DNA of 64,000 nt, taken from a virus. Its lineage: Duplodnaviria > Caudoviricetes. Of this stretch, positions 13,902-31,753 are shown in pieces. The notes beneath the pieces are model-generated. The model was not told the origin of the DNA and did no database searches. It saw only the letters and a program-made list of their open reading frames with translations. The stretch lies in IMG/VR virus record IMGVR_UViG_3300002220_006617, positions 1 through 64,000 of that record. One strand, 5' to 3'. Position numbers and translations under genes: made by a program. How positions within the stretch are numbered: position 1 is the first letter of the stretch; the number at the start of each line of letters is the position of its first letter.

Positions 13902-14317
13902 TGTCGCCCTCCGTCGAGTCAATCAAATCTGAACTCAAGAAGACGGAACACCGTATCAAAAGAAAGGTCAACAGCCTGCGCCTGAAAGACCGGTTCAAGG
14001 TATTCTCCACGACATTCACCAAGAACCTCTTTGGCTGCATGGTCCTGCTTCTGGTCCTTTGTGCAACCGTCAAGATCCTCTGGCCATATACCATGAGTGT
14101 TCTGGACTTCATCCTGCTGGTCCTCATCTTCAACATTGTCCTGGCCCTTGTCAGTGCAATCACCTGGAGCCCTGCAAAACAGCTCTCATCTATGCTCAGT
14201 GCAATGCAGAACGACATAATGGTGAAAGCGGCGGCTCACAAAGAATGCGATCACAACTCATGTGCCTGCAAGACGCCCCGCGGAGTTCAACCGGATGATA
14301 CAGTTTTCATGTCCTAG
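13901..14317 (+). CDS. membrane protein, 2 TM
   Basis: TAATG coupling; two hydrophobic helices. Confidence 0.65.
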   Translation: MSPSVESIKSELKKTEHRIKRKVNSLRLKDRFKVFSTTFTKNLFGCMVLLLVLCATVKILWPYTMSVLDFILLVLIFNIVLALVSAITWSPAKQLSSMLSAMQNDIMVKAAAHKECDHNSCACKTPRGVQPDDTVFMS

Positions 14318-15023
14318 CGGGGACCTCAAACTTTTTGTCGAGACCCTCGGATCCCTTCTCGTTGAAGCCAAGATCCATGTCAGTCCGACCGGCCTGAGTG
14401 CAATAGCCGTCGATTCAGCGAACGTTGCCATGGTCCTCAGCAAATACGATCTCGCCATCGATACTGCAGAAGAACTTGTTATCGGTATCGACCTCGAGAA
14501 ACTCCGCAAACTTCTCAACGTAGTCGAATCCCTGGAACTTAAAGTGACCATCAACGAAGGAACGCTGACCCTCATAAGCGACGACTGGGAAAATTCCATC
14601 CGGCTTCTGGATATCAGCACGATCCGCCGGGAACCAAACCCCCCTTCACTCACAGCCCTGGATTCCAAGTTCACTGACGAAAAAAAGATGATCCCGGCAG
14701 CAATCAAAAAGATCGTTTCGGTCGGTGCAGAAAAGATCATCTTTGAGATCAAAGACAGCGTCGTCACCATGAAAAACGGCGATACCGGTGAAGACTGCAA
14801 CAAACGCACATTCACATCCGAAGAACTGATCAGTCCTTCAGGAAATGCCACCGCAATGTTTGCCAAGGATTACCTGTCAAGCCTCGAAACTATTCTCAAG
14901 AAACTGCATACCGTTGTATACGAAATGCATACTGATCATCCCATCAAGATCACTGCACAAAACCAGCCCGGTTCAATCGTAGCCACATATCTCGTAGCAC
15001 CCCGGATTGAATCTGCAGACTGA
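14295..15023 (+). CDS. pcn: PCNA sliding clamp
   Basis: AVDSANVAMV, IGIDLEKL, DHPIKI, YLVAPRIE. Confidence 0.92.
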   Translation: MIQFSCPSGDLKLFVETLGSLLVEAKIHVSPTGLSAIAVDSANVAMVLSKYDLAIDTAEELVIGIDLEKLRKLLNVVESLELKVTINEGTLTLISDDWENSIRLLDISTIRREPNPPSLTALDSKFTDEKKMIPAAIKKIVSVGAEKIIFEIKDSVVTMKNGDTGEDCNKRTFTSEELISPSGNATAMFAKDYLSSLETILKKLHTVVYEMHTDHPIKITAQNQPGSIVATYLVAPRIESAD

Positions 15024-15159
15024 TTTTCTTTTCTTTAATTTTTATTTTTCGCCCGGGAATATTATGTTACCAATAGCAAATCCATAACCTTCTTAAAATT
15101 AAACCCCTAATCTACCAAGTCATCAACTCCAAAACATTCTACAAAGGAGATCTTCCACT

Positions 15160-15477
15160 TTGCGCATAACAATCCACGACAACCCTGTAGAAGAAATGAC
15201 AAAGAATGTCGATACCCACTTTTTCAAAACCTCCCGCGAAAAAGATGTCTACCTGGCCCAACTTTCCAAACTAGCCGGCCAAACGTACCTTGGTGTCGAG
15301 GGTATCACTGATTATACCTACACCCCCCGAAAAGGACAGATAAAGTTGCTCATCGACGAAAAATCCAGAACCTTCTTCGATGTCCCCTCAATTGTAGTTG
15401 CCAAAGTCGAATGGTGTATCACCATGACAATAATACCGCTTCTGACGGAACTGCCCTTCCTGATCGCTGTCGATTAG
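15160..15477 (+). CDS. hypothetical protein
   Basis: AGGAG RBS, TTG start. Confidence 0.55.
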   Translation: MRITIHDNPVEEMTKNVDTHFFKTSREKDVYLAQLSKLAGQTYLGVEGITDYTYTPRKGQIKLLIDEKSRTFFDVPSIVVAKVEWCITMTIIPLLTELPFLIAVD

Positions 15478-15521
15478 GGTAACCCTTACGGCTGCGGCCG
15501 TTCGGGATACTCCTATCGCCA
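15468..15521 (+). repeat. conserved hairpin element copy 3 (TGCG loop)
   Basis: CGATTAGGGTAACCCTTACGGC-TGCG-GCCGTTCGGGATACTCCTATCG. Confidence 0.85.
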
Positions 15522-15556
15522 CCGTCTTTTTTTATAATCAACATCAATCCCAGACC

Positions 15557-15575
15557 AGTGACATCAATTAAAATG
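15557..15575 (+). promoter_or_regulatory. AGTGAC-N5-TATA promoter
   Basis: AGTGAC atcaa TTAAAATG. Confidence 0.6.
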
Positions 15576-15603
15576 ATTCTGTTCCTAAAGAATCACGAAC
15601 CTG

Positions 15604-15981
15604 ATGCCAGCAGTTGATATACAATCAAAACTAAGAAAGATAGGCCAATTGTTCGGCGTATACGTTCTTGCTTATAAAGAGAAAAAGCACGACGTATACC
15701 TGGCAGAGTTCAACGCATACACCCGCCAACAACTCCGCGGGACCGGAGCAATGAAAACCATCATCCGGATATGCAGACAATATGGCTTCAAACACATCAA
15801 TCTCGTTGCATGCCCCATCGGGTCGCTTGACGGTACAGAAACTCCAGCAACAGAATCTAACGTCAACCGGCTGGTGAACTGGTATACTCAATTCGGGTTC
15901 CAGCTCAAGGACAAGATCTCATACATGTATGGGAACGAGATGATCCTTCCACTCACAGACGATCAGGACAACTCAAAATGA
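15604..15981 (+). CDS. GNAT-family acetyltransferase
   Basis: LRGTG acetyl-CoA loop, LVNWYTQFGF. Confidence 0.75.
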   Translation: MPAVDIQSKLRKIGQLFGVYVLAYKEKKHDVYLAEFNAYTRQQLRGTGAMKTIIRICRQYGFKHINLVACPIGSLDGTETPATESNVNRLVNWYTQFGFQLKDKISYMYGNEMILPLTDDQDNSK

Positions 15982-16418
15982 TTACTGATGAAAACCGACG
16001 GATTTACCGTCAGGCTATGACCCGGTACGGGATCGTCAAACAAACCAATCAGACGGTCCAGGAACTCGGTGAATGTATCATGGCCTGCACAAAGTACCTG
16101 CAGAAAATCTACTGGGCTGAACCCGTCGCCCAAGAGAAGTTCAACAAATACATGGACAACCTGGCAGAAGAAATCGCTGACGTCCAGATCATGACTGAAC
16201 AACTCACCGATTATCACGGTATTGAAGATCAGGTTGCCCGGTGGAAAGAACAAAAAATCCAACGCCTTGTATTCCGCATGGCCGGGGGTGACGCACATGG
16301 GAAAAAATGTAACGATCGATATGAACGGGAAATCAATCCCCTTCAAGAACGGAAACCTCAACCAGGAAGTTCCGGTCTTACCGAAAAAATCAAAGAGATC
16401 ATCCAAAGGTTCGCATGA
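15978..16418 (+). CDS. MazG-like NTP pyrophosphohydrolase
   Basis: QELGE...EEIADVQIM. Confidence 0.8.
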   Translation: MITDENRRIYRQAMTRYGIVKQTNQTVQELGECIMACTKYLQKIYWAEPVAQEKFNKYMDNLAEEIADVQIMTEQLTDYHGIEDQVARWKEQKIQRLVFRMAGGDAHGKKCNDRYEREINPLQERKPQPGSSGLTEKIKEIIQRFA

Positions 16419-16660
16419 ATGAACCAACCCGGAAGAAAATTCTCGATCTCATTGCCCACACCACTGTACAACCCGGCGGCTGGACGGATATCCGTCTCGA
16501 GGACCAAACCGATCCTCACATTTTCTTCACCCACCTGCTCAAATCGGATCTTGCAGACCACATCAAACTCTGTGACAGATCATCACTCAGCATAACGCTA
16601 CTCAACAACCACACCATCATCATCAAAAGGAATCCGCTCAATGATATCGCCCAAATCTAA
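16415..16660 (+). CDS. hypothetical protein
   Basis: ATGA coupling. Confidence 0.5.
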   Translation: MNEPTRKKILDLIAHTTVQPGGWTDIRLEDQTDPHIFFTHLLKSDLADHIKLCDRSSLSITLLNNHTIIIKRNPLNDIAQI

Positions 16661-16880
16661 AATCGAGATTGCCATTCTCAGATCCCTGGAAACCACTCTC
16701 GGAACCGACCTTCAGAATCTCAACAGCACTGCTGACTACATCAAGCAAAACCCGCTTGAATGTCATATTGACGCAGGTATGATCATCACCGGTAACCGCG
16801 GCGGTATAGAACTTGCCCGGTACCGGGTCCAGGAACTGATCAAATCCCGTCAACCTGTTTCTATGGCCCCCACGGGGTAA
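16641..16880 (+). CDS. hypothetical protein
   Basis: ORF; stop lies inside hairpin copy 4. Confidence 0.55.
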   Translation: MISPKSKIEIAILRSLETTLGTDLQNLNSTADYIKQNPLECHIDAGMIITGNRGGIELARYRVQELIKSRQPVSMAPTG

Positions 16881-16922
16881 CCCCTGTGGCTGATGCCCCA
16901 GGGGATACTCCCTTGGTGGCCA
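16864..16922 (+). repeat. conserved hairpin element copy 4
   Basis: TGGCCCCCACGGGGTAACCCCTGTGGC-TGAT-GCCCCAGGGGATACTCCCTTGGTGGCCA. Confidence 0.9.
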
Positions 16923-16961
16923 CCATTATTGTTTCGTTAAAATATCATTCAAGGTTTCATC

Positions 16962-17588
16962 ATGACAGAACAGAATCGTCTTCAATACGGCAAAGGCAAA
17001 ATAAACTCTATCAACAACGATCTTGTTGATATCAACGGGGTGATGTTCCACGTTGCCGGCAAGAAAGCGCGGGATACCCTGAAAACCATGGTTGTCGGAC
17101 AGGAAATCAAGTTCGGCTACGACCCCGCAAGCCCTATGGACATCCTCTGGATCGGCACCGGTGACGTAAAATCAACGCCTGCAACAACGCCAATAATCGT
17201 TGTACCGCCAGCAATCGGGCAGACTTCACTTTCACCCCCTGCAGTCCCAAAGGTTGAAATCCCCCCGAATACTATATTCAAGGGCACAGGTTCAGAAGGT
17301 CTCCAGTCTGAAACCAAGATGGAAAAACCTTCTGCACCGGAAAAACCAGCAACCATTCCGGAGCCCGCTCCTGGTGCAGCAACCACAGATGACAACCTTC
17401 CAATACCCAACGCGGTAACCGTAACTGACAACCCCTCCACCAACACTCTCCAGATATATCTCAAATGTCTGGAGATCGGTGCATTAGGTCCTGGCGATTA
17501 CCGGAACTCTACAGACAGACCGAAAGCGGTCCTGGCTGCAGCAGACGAATATTATCTGCACGTCCTCAGGAAGTTCAACCTCGTATGA
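16962..17588 (+). CDS. hypothetical protein, OB-like N-terminus with Pro-rich linker
   Basis: domain pattern; TATA 25 nt upstream. Confidence 0.65.
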   Translation: MTEQNRLQYGKGKINSINNDLVDINGVMFHVAGKKARDTLKTMVVGQEIKFGYDPASPMDILWIGTGDVKSTPATTPIIVVPPAIGQTSLSPPAVPKVEIPPNTIFKGTGSEGLQSETKMEKPSAPEKPATIPEPAPGAATTDDNLPIPNAVTVTDNPSTNTLQIYLKCLEIGALGPGDYRNSTDRPKAVLAAADEYYLHVLRKFNLV

Positions 17589-17794
17589 ACGAACACAATT
17601 GTCCAACCAGCTGGCTTCACCCGAAAATGGAGATGGTTTCAACCGTCCCCATCGGTGAAGTATATTCCGGTATCAAAGCATACCTCTGGCAATGTCCGAA
17701 ATGCCGTACTGTCGCTACCCTCTGCGATAGGATGTGCAAGACCTGCCAGATAAACAAGAACTGTGACGATAGCACCGTCAATACACATTCATAA
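17585..17794 (+). CDS. Zn-ribbon protein
   Basis: WQCPKC; ATGA coupling. Confidence 0.55.
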   Translation: MNEHNCPTSWLHPKMEMVSTVPIGEVYSGIKAYLWQCPKCRTVATLCDRMCKTCQINKNCDDSTVNTHS

Positions 17795-17801
17795 ATTTTC
17801 A

Positions 17802-17955
17802 GCCTTCGTAGTTCAGTGGACGGAACGCCTGCCTTGTAACCAGGAGAGAACCCTAGAAAGGTTCACATGTGCCTTTCGATGATTGGGTGAGGTACACTAT
17901 AAGCCTCTCCTGACAAGTGAGCAGGATGCCGGGAGTTCGACTCTCCCCGAAGGCT
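17802..17955 (+). tRNA. tRNA-Thr(TGT) with 81-nt intron at 37/38 (17839-17919)
   Basis: GCCTTCG/CGAAGGC acceptor, CCTGC/GCAGG anticodon stem, GGGAG-TTCGACT-CTCCC; BHB-like CTTG/CAAG helix. Confidence 0.9.
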
Positions 17956-17957
17956 TT

Positions 17958-18380
17958 AGCCGAAATTGCAGTCGGCTCGTTATACTGGCTTGCGTTAAAA
18001 ACCAGCAGTTATCCGTGAAACTAAAAACGGAAGTAGGCTACCTAGTCAACTGCCGAAACCATGTTGATGCTTTCCGGTGATGTTCCCAAACCGGCGGGAT
18101 GGATGTTGCAATCATCTGCATCCCCGAGTAGGTCAGTTCCGGGTCATGCCGTGCTGATCCATTTGAGTCGTCTCGTAGAGAGGCTCAAAAAACCAAAACA
18201 TACATTTCAAGCATCACGCGATGACCGGCTCATCACCGGCTTCGTGCCTTGCCGTAAAGATGCAACAAGCAAGAGAAAGAGCAGTCTGCTAAGCCGGATA
18301 ATACATAGCTCGACCGCGGTTGACATTGAGATCAACCCGGATGGAAATCGAAGTTGCACGGCACTTTACGGCATTATTCA
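17958..18380 (+). ncRNA. putative large structured ncRNA
   Basis: many stems: TGATGCTT/AAGCATCA, CCGGCTT/AAGCCGG, TGCCGTAAAG/CTTTACGGCA. Confidence 0.6.
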
Positions 18381-18386
18381 ACAAGA

Positions 18387-18653
18387 GTTCCGTCGGCGTG
18401 GTGAGACACGCGAATCGAGTGTAAGAGAACTTCACGGTGAGACCGCGTAAAGTGAAAGACTCTGTAACATAGCGACATCCAACCACGGTATGGACATTAC
18501 CCCGTATACCCGGGATATGCCATATAAAAAGAGTACAGGTTTGCCTGTATATCGAAAGGTGTGGAAGTTGGAGGCACCAGGAGTCGGTATAAAACGAGGC
18601 GTCGGTACACGCCTATCTTACACGGAGCAGGTTTGAATCCTGCACGGAACACC
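18387..18653 (+). ncRNA. ~265-nt RNA with tRNA-like domain (tmRNA-like architecture)
   Basis: GTTCCGT/ACGGAAC acceptor, GTGTAAGA/TCTTACAC stem, GCAGG-TTTGAAT-CCTGC T-arm, ends ACC. Confidence 0.75.
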
Positions 18654-18656
18654 TTT

Positions 18657-18732
18657 GACCTCGTAACTCAGTCTGGTAGAGTGCCTGGTGGTATACACTG
18701 GGACGCCGCAGGTTCAAATCCTGCAGGGGTCG
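18657..18732 (+). tRNA. aberrant tRNA (9-nt anticodon loop TGGTATACA, identity undetermined)
   Basis: normal D and T arms; acceptor GACCTCG/AGGGGTC. Confidence 0.7.
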
Positions 18733-18928
18733 TTTTCCCGTTCACGCGGGATAATCTTTGAGGGTTATTTCCTCGTAAGGGGCGATCCAGAGCCTTGATC
18801 TGGATGTAGGAATAGACCGATGCCGACAAAAGAAGGTTACGTTTGCAGTGTAGCGGTAAATTACATTTGGGTTTCCGGCGATTCCGTTAAACCGGCAGGA
18901 GCGGCTGCGTGAACAGCCAAGATCCTTT

Positions 18929-19002
18929 GTCATCGTATCTCAGTTTGGTAGAGTGGGCGGTTGTTACCCGCCTTGTCGTAGGTTCGAGTCCTACCGATGA
19001 CG
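18929..19002 (+). tRNA. tRNA-Asn(GTT)
   Basis: GTCATCG/CGATGAC, GGCGG-TTGTTAC-CCGCC, G73. Confidence 0.92.
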
Positions 19003-19218
19003 TACCCCAACCGGAGCAATCTCCCAAGGGGCCCGTAGCGCTATTCCCGAAGGGAACAACATTTGTAAATCAGGTCGCAAAGCCTGGACTCAGGCGGGAG
19101 AAAACAGTTATCCACAAGGTTAACACCCTTCACGTTTGGATTACTTCAAAAAAACAGTGCTATGCGTAACCGGTTAGTGGCGAGTTCCCGGTCAGAGAAA
19201 AAACTTTGCCATTATAGA

Positions 19219-19312
19219 GGGGCCGTAACATAGCGGTCAAATGTACAGGTGGCAACTTCCTGTTCAGATGTGCGCCAACATCCTGACGCAGGTTCGAATC
19301 CTGCCGGCCCCA
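19219..19312 (+). tRNA. tRNA-Leu(CAA)-like with non-canonical G32G33 loop
   Basis: GGGGCCG/CGGCCCC, long variable arm, A73; loop GG-CAA-CT. Confidence 0.7.
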
Positions 19313-19414
19313 TAAGGTCTGACATGCGGAAGATCGTCTTGCCCCGAGGGCAGGGTGCGCTCAGATCTTAACGTGGAGTAATCCAGAAGCATGGCATGGA
19401 TGTAACTCTCAGGT

Positions 19415-19544
19415 GGATGCTGCGGAGCTGATCACTCCGGAGTCGGTTTATGTGTGCCCCAGGTTATAACCTGGTTGTCATCGGGGGCTCTGATGGGGTC
19501 GAGGCTTATCCCGCCCATCGGACCGTTCAATTCGGCACCATCCA
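19415..19544 (+). ncRNA. degenerate tRNA-like structure
   Basis: GGATG/CATCC ends, GGAG/CTCC D-like arm, GAGTC/GGCTC stem, CCG-TTCAATT-CGG T-like loop. Confidence 0.35.
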
Positions 19545-19640
19545 ATTTCTCTATGAACTGGCCAGATGTAGAGACTACTAGGCAAGATAACTGCAGGAAT
19601 AAATCCAGTTCAATCAAATACTGCCAAAATTGCCAATCAG

Positions 19641-19714
19641 GGGTCGGTAGCTCAGCTAGGCAGAGCGTCGGACTTTTAATCCGAAGTGCGAGGGTTCGAT
19701 TCCCTCCCGGCCCG
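19641..19714 (+). tRNA. tRNA-Lys(TTT)
   Basis: canonical cloverleaf, TCGGA-CTTTTAA-TCCGA. Confidence 0.95.
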
Positions 19715-19849
19715 TTCGCTAGTACCTGACCTCATGCAGGGAACGCGACATTGGTTCGTAACCTCCCAATGAAAGTTCCCGAATCAGATCGGTCGTCCGG
19801 TTAAACGGGTGAATGCTAAACACGGACCGACGTTTCGGGAACCAATATT

Positions 19850-19933
19850 GCTGCTGTAGCCAAGCCCGGCATGGCGACAGGCTGCTATCCTGTTCGTGGT
19901 AACACATCGCGGGTTCAAATCCTGCCAGCAGCG
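19850..19933 (+). tRNA. tRNA-Ser(GCT)
   Basis: GCTGCTG/CAGCAGC, ACAGG-CTGCTAT-CCTGT, variable arm, G73. Confidence 0.93.
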
Positions 19934-19948
19934 TCAGAAGGAACAATC

Positions 19949-20299
19949 ATGGACGAAAAAGAACTCAATAAAAACCTCGAGGTCCTCGACCGGTTCTGTG
20001 CATTTACCATCAGTACTCACGCAGAACATAAATCAGAATACTTTGTAGGAATTCGGGCAGGCGTCAAGATCCTCAAAGTGCGACTCGACGAAGTGTTCAA
20101 AAGACGTCACCAGTTCGAAGGGTATTCGCTCGATTCCGCAATCACTGTTGAAGAAATCAACCGGGGAAAAACCCTTGACGCATTAACCAATGAGATCAGC
20201 CAGTTGACGTTATGGGAATACACCCGCGACTGCAAGAATTTCAAAGATTTCAAACACCAGATTTCGCTGCTCAAACAAATGACGAGAAAAGAACCATGA
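19949..20299 (+). CDS. hypothetical protein
   Basis: first ATG after tRNA-Ser; coupled to rtcB. Confidence 0.6.
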   Translation: MDEKELNKNLEVLDRFCAFTISTHAEHKSEYFVGIRAGVKILKVRLDEVFKRRHQFEGYSLDSAITVEEINRGKTLDALTNEISQLTLWEYTRDCKNFKDFKHQISLLKQMTRKEP

Positions 20300-21510
20300 T
20301 AGAACTGAAAGGACGTTTCGGCAACGCACAAGTCATGATTGATACTGTCGAAGAAGACTGTATCAGCCAGATTCAGGGATTCCTGAACCATCCATTGTAC
20401 TGCAACCCCGTCAGAATCATGCCAGATACCCACGGCGGAAAAGGCAGTGTGATCGGGTTCACTATGAAACTCACTCACGGCGTATGTGCCAACGTGATCG
20501 GGGTGGACATCGGCTGCGGCGTAAACTGCTGGCAGATCGTTGACGGCCAAACCCTCTCATTCCCGGACATCGACACTGCTATAAGACGCCGGGTACCTCT
20601 CGGGATGACCACCCACTCAAAACCCATTGCAACCATCGCAGACGACTATGATTTTGGCAAAGCCCAAAAAAACGCCAGCAACTTCATCAATGCCATCAAC
20701 AAACGGTCCCGCGATTACGATACAAAATATCCAATACCGACCATAGATTACGAATGGTTCCTCAACCTCTGCAAAACTGCAAACGTCAACGAAGATCAGG
20801 TAAATGCCTCCCTGGGAACGCTTGGAGGGGGCAATCACTATGTTGAGATCGGCGTCGGCAAAGATACTAACCAACAGGTCCACCATTACCTGACTGTCCA
20901 CAGCGGTTCAAGAAACTTCGGAAAACGAGTGGCTGATTATTACCAGAAACTTGCTCAGGGCCTCACGTATAACCGCGGGTTCGACCGGGATCTCGCATAC
21001 CTGATTGACCAAAACGCCATGGACTATTACATGGCCATGATCTTTGTCCAGGAATTTGCATCCATGAACCGGGCCGTTATCGGTGAACTCATCAGAATAG
21101 CCGGCGACCTTGAACTTGGAGATTGTATTGAGTCAATACACAATTACATTGACTTCCGTGACATGATCATCCGGAAAGGTGCCATCAGTTCCTATGTCGG
21201 CGAGAAGATGGTCATCCCGTTCAATATGAAAGATGGCATGTGGATCTGTGAAGGAAAAAGCAATCCCGGCTGGAACTTCTCAGCACCACACGGGGCTGGC
21301 CGGATCATGTCCAGGACCCAGGCCAAGAAAACCATTGTCCTTGAGGATTTCCAGAAGGAGATGGAAGGCATCTTCAGCACCAGCGTAGGCCCGCAGACCC
21401 TGGATGAAGCCCCGGGGACATACAAACCGGCAGAACTCATCCAACAGGCCATTGGACCTACAGCCACCATCCTCACCAAAGTCAGGCCGGTTTATAATCT
21501 CAAAGCATAA
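20296..21510 (+). CDS. rtcB: RtcB RNA ligase
   Basis: MPDTH, GVDIGCG, GTLGGGNHYVE, HSGSR, HNY, PHGAGR, DEAPGTYK. Confidence 0.97.
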   Translation: MIELKGRFGNAQVMIDTVEEDCISQIQGFLNHPLYCNPVRIMPDTHGGKGSVIGFTMKLTHGVCANVIGVDIGCGVNCWQIVDGQTLSFPDIDTAIRRRVPLGMTTHSKPIATIADDYDFGKAQKNASNFINAINKRSRDYDTKYPIPTIDYEWFLNLCKTANVNEDQVNASLGTLGGGNHYVEIGVGKDTNQQVHHYLTVHSGSRNFGKRVADYYQKLAQGLTYNRGFDRDLAYLIDQNAMDYYMAMIFVQEFASMNRAVIGELIRIAGDLELGDCIESIHNYIDFRDMIIRKGAISSYVGEKMVIPFNMKDGMWICEGKSNPGWNFSAPHGAGRIMSRTQAKKTIVLEDFQKEMEGIFSTSVGPQTLDEAPGTYKPAELIQQAIGPTATILTKVRPVYNLKA

Positions 21511-21599
21511 CCCTTTTTTCCAGAATCACCGGCATGTCCAGAATTGCAGGTGCAACTCCTGCCGTGCCAATCCGGGTGTTTTACCCGAGGAACTTACTC

Positions 21600-22181
21600 A
21601 TGAATCGCACAGAACTCTGTACTACCACAACCCCGTTTACCAACTACGTTGTCAACCTGCTTGGCGGTCCCGGTGCCGGAAAGTCCACAAACGCACTTCT
21701 CCTCACCGGCAAACTGAAAAAAGCAGGTTATAACGCAGAATATACCGGGGAATATGCCAAAGACTGCGTCTGGAGAAAAGCAGAAAACATCCTCGAAGAC
21801 CAAATCTACATCTTCGGCAAACAAAACAATCGCCAGTTCCGGCTGAAAAACCAGGTCCAGTTCACCATCACCGACTCACCTCTGATTCTCAACCTTCATT
21901 ACGGAAACCATCTCGGCCCCACGTTCAAGAAACTGGCTCTTGAAACGTTCAACAGCTACAACAACATCAATTTCTTCATCGAACGTACCAAAGTCTACAA
22001 CCCGGTCGGCCGCATGCAGACCGCCCAAGAATCTGATACCATCGCCAATGAAGTCATCGAACTCCTCCTCAAAAACCAGGTCCCGTTCACCCGTATCAAC
22101 TCGGATTGGGATCTCGATGATCTTGTAGACCTGGTCCTCAAAGCCACAAAAACCACGATAAATCCCTTAATTGTCTGTTAA
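21600..22181 (+). CDS. P-loop nucleotide kinase (NadR/AAA_28-like)
   Basis: GGPGAGKST, ITDSPL, YNPVGR. Confidence 0.85.
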   Translation: MNRTELCTTTTPFTNYVVNLLGGPGAGKSTNALLLTGKLKKAGYNAEYTGEYAKDCVWRKAENILEDQIYIFGKQNNRQFRLKNQVQFTITDSPLILNLHYGNHLGPTFKKLALETFNSYNNINFFIERTKVYNPVGRMQTAQESDTIANEVIELLLKNQVPFTRINSDWDLDDLVDLVLKATKTTINPLIVC

Positions 22182-22228
22182 AGGGCAATAAGACCCTTTA
22201 ATACTAAGCATCAACAATCTTCTAATCA

Positions 22229-22247
22229 ATCAGCAACAATCACAGGC
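22229..22247 (+). repeat. conserved leader motif ATCAGCAACAATCACAGGC copy 1
   Basis: identical 19-mer at 39270; 15-mer core at 39688; each 7-10 nt before an ATG. Confidence 0.7.
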
Positions 22248-22255
22248 AACACACT

Positions 22256-22513
22256 ATGACAAACATTGAATACCGACTAAGCGGCCTCCTGATAGGTAAT
22301 GAAGATTGTCCACAATTCAATCCGGGCATTACTGACTCAACCGGCCGAATCCCCTGCACGTATATTGAACACGGATGTTCTCGGCACACGCAGGTACGGT
22401 CCAAACTCCACCTGGCCCAAGACAACAAAGACGTGAAATGCTATGCTTTCCCCTCGAAGACCAATGTCTTCATGACCGGGAACCAGTTCAAGCAGGACCA
22501 TGTCTCCGATTAA
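22256..22513 (+). CDS. Cys-rich hypothetical protein
   Basis: ORF after leader motif. Confidence 0.55.
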   Translation: MTNIEYRLSGLLIGNEDCPQFNPGITDSTGRIPCTYIEHGCSRHTQVRSKLHLAQDNKDVKCYAFPSKTNVFMTGNQFKQDHVSD

Positions 22514-22832
22514 AGGATCAAAAGACGAAGACGTAGTTACTGAAATCGTCGCTGAATTCCTTTGCAACCACCCTGGAAAAGTATTCATCAACACCAAATC
22601 AGTATACAACGAATGTAAAGACGTTTTCATTGCACTTGCCCCGGAGTTCTGGAAATACACTCCCAAGTACAAGAAAACCATGATCTCCAAAACCCTGAGC
22701 AAACTGGGAAGTAAACAATCAGCCAACCATCTGGCACCCTATCATATAAACCGGGTCGCCGTCAACCAAACCGTAATCAACCTCAAAAAGTCACATACGG
22801 TTATGCCCCTCGGCTGCAAGTCCATTTCATGA
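22500..22832 (+). CDS. hypothetical protein (wHTH-like)
   Basis: ORF; weak similarity to 29225-29512. Confidence 0.55.
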   Translation: MSPIKGSKDEDVVTEIVAEFLCNHPGKVFINTKSVYNECKDVFIALAPEFWKYTPKYKKTMISKTLSKLGSKQSANHLAPYHINRVAVNQTVINLKKSHTVMPLGCKSIS

Positions 22833-23029
22833 CCGTGGACCCCAAAACTACCGAAACCATTTACGTCAACCTTGCAATGACCGTTGCCGTTGAGATAGAG
22901 TCGGGAACCCCCAAACGAACTATCAAAAAACGAGCCGTTGACATTGCCAACGATGTTGCGAAAAAGGATGAAAAATTCTTTTTTACCCAGAAAAACATCA
23001 CCGAAATCAACCCCGAAAAAAGGTATTGA
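22829..23029 (+). CDS. hypothetical protein
   Basis: ATGA coupling. Confidence 0.55.
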   Translation: MTVDPKTTETIYVNLAMTVAVEIESGTPKRTIKKRAVDIANDVAKKDEKFFFTQKNITEINPEKRY

Positions 23030-30436: not shown

Positions 30437-31753
30437 ATGACATACACTGCATTTATCTCACGGATTACCAACATCCGCCCGCACCCCGATCCCAAAACAC
30501 TCCGGTTAAAACTGGGAACCGTCTGCAACCAACAGATCGTTCTCGGAATGCCCTATCCGGAGGAAGGCCAGATAGGGATCTTTTTCCCTGTAGATGGCCG
30601 GTTAAGCGACCAGTTCCTGACCGCCAACAACCTGGTCGGCACCATTGACCCCGTCACCAAAGAGCGGAAAGGCGGATTCTTCGATATCAACGGCAAGGTC
30701 CGTGCCCAGTCATTCCGCGGCGCAAAGAGCTGGGGATACTGGACCCCGCTGGTATCCCTTGAATTCACCGGCGCTGATCTGACAACACTCGCCGAAGGTA
30801 TGACCGTCACAGACCTCAACGGTATCAAGATCTGCGAGAAATACGTCAATGCCAGAACCCAGGCTGCAGCAGCACAGAACAAAAAACGCCCGGAAGAGAA
30901 GGTCAAGTACCCGCTGTTCCATGAACACATCGACACCGCCAAACTCGAGTACTACATCAATGATCTCAAGAAAGGCGACGTCCTGGTCATCACCGAGAAA
31001 CTCCACGGGACCAGCGGCCGCACGGCCAACACGGTCCAGACCCGGCAATCCCGGATCGGGCTGCTCATCAACAACATCCTGAAACGCCGGTTCATCCAGC
31101 CGACACGGTCCTGGCAATATGTCACCGGCACCCGAAAAGTCATCAAGGACTTCAACAACCCGAATGATTACGGGTACTTCGGTGCTGACGAAACCTTCCG
31201 GAAAACAGCTCACGACCTGTTCACCGAAAAACTCCATAAAGGAGAAACGGTTTACTACGAGATTGTCGGATGGGCCAGCGAAACCCGGCCGATCTCATCC
31301 TGCCAAAACGCAGCAAAAATCAAACAGGACAAAGACTTTGCCAAAAAATGGGGAACTGAGATCACATTCCACTACGGCTGCCCAACCGGCACCACCCGGG
31401 TCTACGTCTACCGCATAACCACCACCAACGAAGACGGGATCGAAACTGACTATGCCTGGGACACCATCAAACGCCGGTGTTCTGAAATGGGTGTTGAACA
31501 CGTCCCGGAGATCGACCGGTTCATCTACGAGGGTGACAAGGACCAGTTACTCAGTTACCTGACCGACATCATCACCGACGAGCCCTCGACACTCACCAAT
31601 GCCCATATCATGGAAGGCGTCGTCGTCCGTGTTGATGGCAGTGAACCGCTGTTCTACAAGATCAAATCTCACGCTTTTGGGGTTTTGGAAGGATACCTCA
31701 AGGAAGATAACGTAATTGACCTTGAGGAAGCTCAGGAAGCAGCAGAAGCATGA
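30437..31753 (+). CDS. ATP-dependent RNA ligase (Rnl2/DRB0094-like)
   Basis: N-terminal OB domain, TEKLHGTS motif I, EGVVVR, KIKS. Confidence 0.9.
   Translation: MTYTAFISRITNIRPHPDPKTLRLKLGTVCNQQIVLGMPYPEEGQIGIFFPVDGRLSDQFLTANNLVGTIDPVTKERKGGFFDINGKVRAQSFRGAKSWGYWTPLVSLEFTGADLTTLAEGMTVTDLNGIKICEKYVNARTQAAAAQNKKRPEEKVKYPLFHEHIDTAKLEYYINDLKKGDVLVITEKLHGTSGRTANTVQTRQSRIGLLINNILKRRFIQPTRSWQYVTGTRKVIKDFNNPNDYGYFGADETFRKTAHDLFTEKLHKGETVYYEIVGWASETRPISSCQNAAKIKQDKDFAKKWGTEITFHYGCPTGTTRVYVYRITTTNEDGIETDYAWDTIKRRCSEMGVEHVPEIDRFIYEGDKDQLLSYLTDIITDEPSTLTNAHIMEGVVVRVDGSEPLFYKIKSHAFGVLEGYLKEDNVIDLEEAQEAAEA

Follow-up and report, generated by a model that had tools for sequence, protein, structure and literature searches.

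Through in silico analysis of a 64-kb window, which starts at position 1 of a 127.7-kb IMG/VR virus record with an estimated completeness of 83%, the segment at positions 17958-18387 was found to be non-coding. With about even confidence, it represents a co-transcribed inter-tRNA spacer within a ~2.1-kb tRNA operon of a probably archaeal tailed virus. The segment is a natural unit of ~430 nt; its first base lies 3 nt after tRNA-Thr, and a tRNA-like fold begins at 18388. The sequence-only reading had proposed a large ornate RNA at this place, and the analysis leans instead to an ordinary interpretation, of which a spacer is the most likely.

The plus strand carries all long ORFs of the 64-kb window, and outside the tRNA region the genome is tightly packed. 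Genes for a T4-type large terminase, a Mu-like portal and a Cdc6/Orc1 protein mark the record as a tailed virus. No close cultured phage or virus was found, the TerL identity being at most 29%. An archaeal host is likely on three grounds: the Cdc6/Orc1 protein, the bulge-helix-bulge-type intron of tRNA-Thr, and the RtcB protein, whose best match bearing an organism name is a Methanoregula MAG (52% identity). Scanning genome collections with the RtcB alignment brought up mainly bacteria and no usable handle on an archaeal host. Two further proteins, a second RNA ligase (30437-31753; Pfam RNA_ligase at residues 183-400 of the 438-aa protein) and a weak PCNA-like protein (14262-15023; PCNA_N, E = 4e-4), extend the RNA-repair/replication gene set of archaeal flavour. 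Neither a splicing endonuclease nor an archease encoded by the virus was found, and the record has no TROVE/Ro60 domain.

The segment is located in a non-coding block (17802-19935) in which Rfam and aragorn identify six tRNA genes: Thr(UGU), Ile(UAU), Asn, Leu/Cys-like, Lys and Ser. At the Rfam gathering thresholds these six are the only matches in the whole window. The order of elements in the operon is Thr, the tRNA-like element, Ile, Asn, Leu/Cys-like, Lys and Ser, with a 116-aa gene and RtcB coming next. The features that border or overlap the segment are as follows:

17802..17955, plus strand: tRNA-Thr(UGU) with an 81-nt intron (17839-17919), Rfam tRNA score 49.2 bits, also detected by aragorn with introns allowed.
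18061..18450, plus strand: ORF of 129 aa with an ATG start, judged spurious (codon log-odds -0.18).
18388..18653, plus strand: tRNA-like element, the fold of which reproduces acceptor, D and T hairpins (z = -3.33); no Rfam match.
18656..18733, plus strand: tRNA-Ile(UAU), which begins 3 nt past the tRNA-like element.

The intron of tRNA-Thr occupies the canonical 37/38 site, and its fold is bulge-helix-bulge-like, with 3-nt bulges (AAC and UGA) either side of a 4-5 bp helix, next to an 8-bp helix. Since the virus has RtcB and lacks both splicing endonuclease and archease, cleavage of this intron would need a host enzyme. The tRNA-like element possesses a perfect 7-bp acceptor (GTTCCGT/ACGGAAC), a D-like hairpin and a T arm (GCAGG-TTTGAAT-CCTGC), with an 8-bp stem and ~190 nt in place of the anticodon arm; there is no canonical bulge-helix-bulge at the base of the insertion. 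Compared with the segment 17958-18387, this element appears the stronger candidate for a real RNA. Further along the array, the tRNA at 19219-19312 has an atypical anticodon loop and is of ambiguous identity: aragorn reports Leu(CAA) in its default mode and, once introns are permitted, Cys(GCA) with a 2-nt 'intron', and Rfam clan competition first gave it a tmRNA label at 27 bits.

Among 5.8 billion protein clusters, the two flanking protein genes, 16962-17588 (208 aa) and 19949-20299 (116 aa), have no homologue. The 116-aa gene and the start of RtcB (20212-21510, or 20296-21510 as called on contigs) share a 4-nt overlap, which suggests that the two genes are translationally coupled. On the other side of the array, a 69-aa cysteine-rich protein, probably a zinc ribbon, is encoded at 17585-17794; it has an ATGA overlap with the 208-aa gene and stops 7 nt before tRNA-Thr. 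A 109-aa ORF call at 17465-17794 is probably an over-extension of this small gene.

The non-coding status of the segment follows from its codon log-odds, its lost skew and the absence of protein homologues and families. The GC skew is -0.005, compared with -0.12 genome-wide and -0.155 in the upstream gene, which bears out the earlier remark that the skew typical of coding regions is lost here. The sequence-only reading was also right that the segment holds no credible ORF: codon usage is atypical, and neither a family match nor a true homologue was obtained. A conserved coding signal for ORF 18061-18450, named beforehand as one of the results that would speak against a non-coding RNA, was looked for and not found. 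It is very improbable that this ORF encodes a real 129-aa orphan protein. The frame is open, starts with ATG and was annotated by one gene caller on one contig (L003), and the adjacent real genes are orphans as well, so that absent homologues weigh little. However, the 127.8-kb contig carries no call for this ORF, the frame shares sequence with the acceptor and D arm of the tRNA-like element, and its composition is free of the A/C skew of coding DNA. By its codon log-odds the ORF ranks in the bottom 11 of 103 ORFs with 100-199 aa, a set that includes several overlapping ORFs in alternative frames; the value falls in the range of overlapping spurious ORFs. Searches of this ORF against Pfam and PHROG gave no match, and an exhaustive HMMER search of 1.84 billion representatives matched only the ORF itself and two proteins of more than 1000 aa, both rejected as homologues; these are artefacts of summed WD40 or coiled-coil repeats. 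A Shine-Dalgarno motif is present in only 32% of the long ORFs and is thus uninformative for this one. In scans of individual ORFs, the smaller ORFs of the segment on both strands matched nothing.

The organization of the array is in agreement with transcription as one unit. Between 17400 and 20300 there is no TATA-like box and no T5 run, though T5 occurs about once per kb genome-wide, and this fits one read-through transcript. The proposed route to the segment takes its steps from the established tRNA-processing pathway: the array would be read through as a single precursor, RNase Z would process the 3' end after tRNA-Thr at 17955, RNase P would cut at 18388, the 5' end of the tRNA-like element, and the two cuts together would free the segment as a ~430-nt by-product. 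The stability of its hairpins, chiefly those of domain A described below, need imply no function beyond keeping the adjacent tRNA domains folding independently, and the segment would have no independent function of its own. Viral tRNA arrays that carry RtcB often have long spacers: among 75 spacers from other such arrays the median length is 74 nt, 35% reach at least 134 nt and 8% at least 400 nt. The position of the segment also favours a spacer, with a bona fide tRNA on one side and a tRNA-like fold abutting tRNA-Ile on the other.

The predicted secondary structure of the segment is divided into a 5' part and two domains. All six helix pairs reported in the sequence-only reading are present at their coordinates:

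17958..17977, plus strand: helix AGCCGA (17958)/TCGGCT (17972), a hairpin with an N8 loop right after tRNA-Thr, pair probability ~0.54.
17978..18061, plus strand: 5' part with small hairpins including GCAGTT/AACTGC, stability no better than chance.
18005 and 18048, plus strand: helix GCAGTT/AACTGC, pair probability ~0.29.
18062..18240, plus strand: domain A, four hairpins in a multibranch loop with an A-rich single strand (18186-18207).
18065 and 18209, plus strand: helix TGATGCTT/AAGCATCA, which closes domain A.
18236 and 18291, plus strand: helix CCGGCTT/AAGCCGG, 7 bp.
18245..18378, plus strand: domain B, which holds the hairpin GGTTGA-N8-TCAACC.
18250 and 18364, plus strand: helix TGCCGTAAAG/CTTTACGGCA, 10 bp, which closes domain B, pair probability 0.9.
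18261 and 18353, plus strand: helix TGCAAC/GTTGCA.

Domain A may be closed either by the helix at 18065/18209 or by the mutually exclusive pair CCGGTGATG (18074)/CATCACCGG (18231), with a closing-helix probability of ~0.9. In all, two long-range helices reach a pair probability of ~0.9. Several further pairings exclude one another, among them 18074/18231 (9 bp) and 18147/18356 (8 bp). The pair CCGGCTT/AAGCCGG does cross TGCCGTAAAG/CTTTACGGCA, as had been claimed. The proposal of a pseudoknot or a two-state switch depends on this 7-bp match; about four 7-bp matches are expected by chance, and a crossing 7-bp pair is therefore no evidence of a pseudoknot.

Compared to shuffled sequences, the whole region on the plus strand gives z = -1.86, and 6 of 100 shuffles match its stability; an independent run gives z = -2.13, whereas 14 coding controls of equal length range from -1.09 to +1.24. 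The minus strand folds equally well (z = -2.31), and therefore nothing in the signal is specific to a sense-strand RNA. Unbiased 160-nt windows across the region give z values from +0.7 to -1.9, whereas several nearby coding windows reach -4 to -4.7. The stretches at 15561-15800, 16681-16920 and 17241-17560, in or between coding ORFs, have z = -3.2 to -4.7 in 160-nt windows, beyond any window of the segment, and may be hairpin elements or regulatory structures in their own right. Most of the array's remaining spacers show no notable stability (z = -0.05, -0.9, -0.5 and -2.3).

Within the segment, positions 17958-18061 give z = -0.89 (P = 0.18). For domain A (18062-18220) the minimum free energy (MFE) structure equals the centroid and z = -3.18, and for domain B z = -3.0, the boundaries of both having been picked after seeing the fold. 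In a selection-corrected test, the best local structure with a span of at most 170 nt in the real sequence was compared with those of 300 dinucleotide shuffles. The best structure, domain A at 18074-18240, has -60.5 kcal/mol, compared with -49.5 +/- 4.7 kcal/mol in the 300 shuffles (P = 0.023). The best local structure clear of domain A has -28.7 kcal/mol, compared with -35.6 +/- 7.5 kcal/mol for the second-best structure of the shuffles, and the resulting P = 0.81 is not a value for domain B itself (18240-18386, -40.6 kcal/mol), which touches domain A by one base. Domain A is the only part of the segment with a near-significant fold.

Perfect Watson-Crick helices are more numerous than expected: 9 of at least 7 bp were seen against 4.0 expected (P = 0.028), and 4 of at least 8 bp against 1.0 expected (P = 0.018); a longest helix of at least 10 bp has P = 0.054. 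Folding of the complete 698-nt gap, with the tRNA-like part included, yields z = -3.56 from only 20 shuffles. The MFE structure of these 698 nt reshuffles the domains, so the global fold is ill-defined, and the frequency of the MFE structure of the 430 nt is ~0. The comparison with shuffled sequence, which had been put forward as a check on the structured RNA, came out borderline (P ~0.02-0.06): domain A came near significance, and the 160-nt windows and the 5' part were unexceptional. Taken together, the structural signals agree with one another but are weak, and stability exceeds chance only marginally.

Searches for known families and relatives were negative. Rfam 15 gave no match in 17940-18670 even at E<=10. 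For the individual covariance models, that of GOLLD (RF01998) had no match in 17940-18670 (E<=10) or 15000-23000 (E<=1) and that of ROOL (RF03087) none in 17940-18670 (E<=10). This result excludes membership of GOLLD, ROOL, RNase P, SRP, tmRNA, group I and II introns and the ribozyme families, and thus places the segment outside every described class. Within 17958-18387 no tRNA or tRNA pseudogene was found by RF00005 at E<=10 or by aragorn with introns up to 400 nt. A bulge-helix-bulge scan for a hidden intron-bearing tRNA gave weak, G-U-rich candidates only, which were rejected. The bacterial Y RNA-like family YrlA (RF02553), which is associated with Ro60/Rsr and RtcB, was dismissed as well; its match at 18602-18712 lies outside the segment and scores 22.8 bits against a gathering threshold of 69, there is no TROVE gene, and the score reflects tRNA-likeness. 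A motif shared between spacers (18071-18099 and 18872-18900, 72% identity) was set aside, being within chance by our own estimate.

No homologue of the segment was found by blastn in 50,697 phage records, and there is no second copy in the virus's own 127.7-kb genome. On other contigs with the same RtcB the region is 100% identical, and these are the only copies known. Around the five RtcB homologues closest to that of the virus (49-57% identity), nothing resembles the segment; their contigs are cellular, or viral with scattered single tRNAs or none near RtcB. Neither nhmmer nor blastn gave a match in 80 further RtcB-carrying IMG/VR loci (~1.04 Mb), and two single-sequence covariance models (R1 and R2, for domains A and B) run on ~1 Mb of RtcB viral loci recovered only themselves, all else having E >=2.5. 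A scan of IMG/VR viral contigs for the exact pattern of the tRNA-Thr 3' end returned nothing; the same pattern in JGI metagenome contigs gave one match, discarded as high-GC bacterial DNA without a tRNA. Searches for close relatives with RtcB, the 208-aa neighbour and TerL were likewise negative. It appears that no syntenic relative has been sequenced so far, both flanking genes being orphans.

A possible, though doubtful, alternative to the spacer is a new large structured non-coding RNA, comprising either 17958-18387 alone or a ~700-nt unit with the tRNA-like domain, excised by RNase Z and RNase P. If GOLLD and ROOL are a guide, it might serve the tRNA or RNA-repair biology of the virus as a decoy, scaffold or self-assembling particle. 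Several observations speak for such an RNA: a z of about -2 makes the segment more stable relative to its own shuffles than all 14 coding controls, long perfect helices occur at about twice the chance number (P = 0.02-0.03) with two long-range ones at ~0.9, domain A keeps P = 0.023 after selection correction with its MFE structure equal to the centroid, and the 698-nt gap, the tRNA-like part included, reaches z = -3.56 against 20 shuffles. The retention of 430 nt of non-coding DNA in a compact genome could likewise mean function, and the segment lies beside RtcB in a viral tRNA array, a setting like that of GOLLD and ROOL (PMC12286853). Against this stand the absence of an Rfam match and of any homologue in every search, hence of covariation, and the ill-defined global fold, with an MFE frequency of ~0 and a rearranged 698-nt MFE. 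Moreover, the minus strand is equally stable, the first 100 nt and the best local structure clear of domain A are not significant, and the viral contigs with the closest RtcB (53-57% identity), which have scattered single tRNAs or none nearby, hold no comparable region. A structure signal that is weak and not strand-specific, with one subdomain at P ~0.02, no Rfam match and no copy in the genome, favours the spacer.

The strand symmetry would equally suit inverted repeats acting in the DNA, and an unlikely reading makes the segment debris or a DNA-level element: a decayed tRNA or protein gene, flanking DNA taken up with a tRNA, an attachment site or inverted repeats that bind a protein. No paralogue of this orphan sequence exists in the genome, and 3 copies of the motif TGCCGT(AAA/GC) fall within 125 nt of the region, compared with 8 in the whole 64-kb window. 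But a tRNA remnant was not detected at E<=10, and no leftover coding skew or protein similarity points to a former gene. An attachment site is countered by the lack of a tyrosine integrase in the 83%-complete record, and the distance of 35 kb to the candidate origin linked to Cdc6 also weighs against this reading.

Among known systems, ROOL RNAs have a length of ~580 nt. Many GOLLD members exceed 800 nt, and phages and prophages carry both RNAs, often close to tRNA islands (PMC12286853); the earlier statement that such ornate RNAs occur in phage tRNA arrays is correct. The segment resembles GOLLD (RF01998) and ROOL (RF03087) in being large, non-coding and viral, in its many predicted stem-loops, and in lying in or beside a tRNA island (PMC12286853). 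Its position inside a six-tRNA array of a tailed virus is GOLLD-like, but location does not define the family. Unlike these RNAs, the segment has no covariance-model match, is shorter (~430 nt), and belongs to a virus whose host is probably archaeal rather than bacterial; it has no family and no covariation, and its thermodynamic support is marginal. A further comparison is with the transcribed spacers of tRNA operons whose polycistronic RNA is cut by RNase P and RNase Z: they too are non-coding, have tRNA-type structures on both sides and carry no promoter- or terminator-like signal of their own, and comparable long spacers exist in other viral tRNA arrays. The differences are that 430 nt falls in the upper tail of the length distribution and that the segment folds somewhat better than its shuffles. 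In RNAs of the MALAT1/mascRNA type, which are eukaryotic and nuclear, a tRNA-like structure directs 3'-end formation. Similarly, the 3' end of the RNA upstream of the tRNA-like fold (18388-18653) would come from RNase P acting at that fold; the analogy is one of mechanism only.

It is rather improbable that the segment, perhaps with the 266-nt tRNA-like domain (~700 nt together), is the first large ornate virus-encoded non-coding RNA of an archaeal virus, excised by the host from a tRNA operon and working alongside the viral RtcB and RNA ligase, as a functional analogue and not a homologue of GOLLD and ROOL. If the segment is a real structured RNA, the link between giant RNAs and viral tRNA islands would extend from bacterial phages to archaeal viruses, and it would provide a case of RNA ends set by tRNA-processing enzymes. 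On present evidence, the segment adds another long spacer without relatives to those of viral tRNA arrays. Its surroundings offer more concrete biology, in a tRNA-Thr with a bulge-helix-bulge intron, a non-decoding tRNA-like element, and a viral RtcB with a second RNA ligase.
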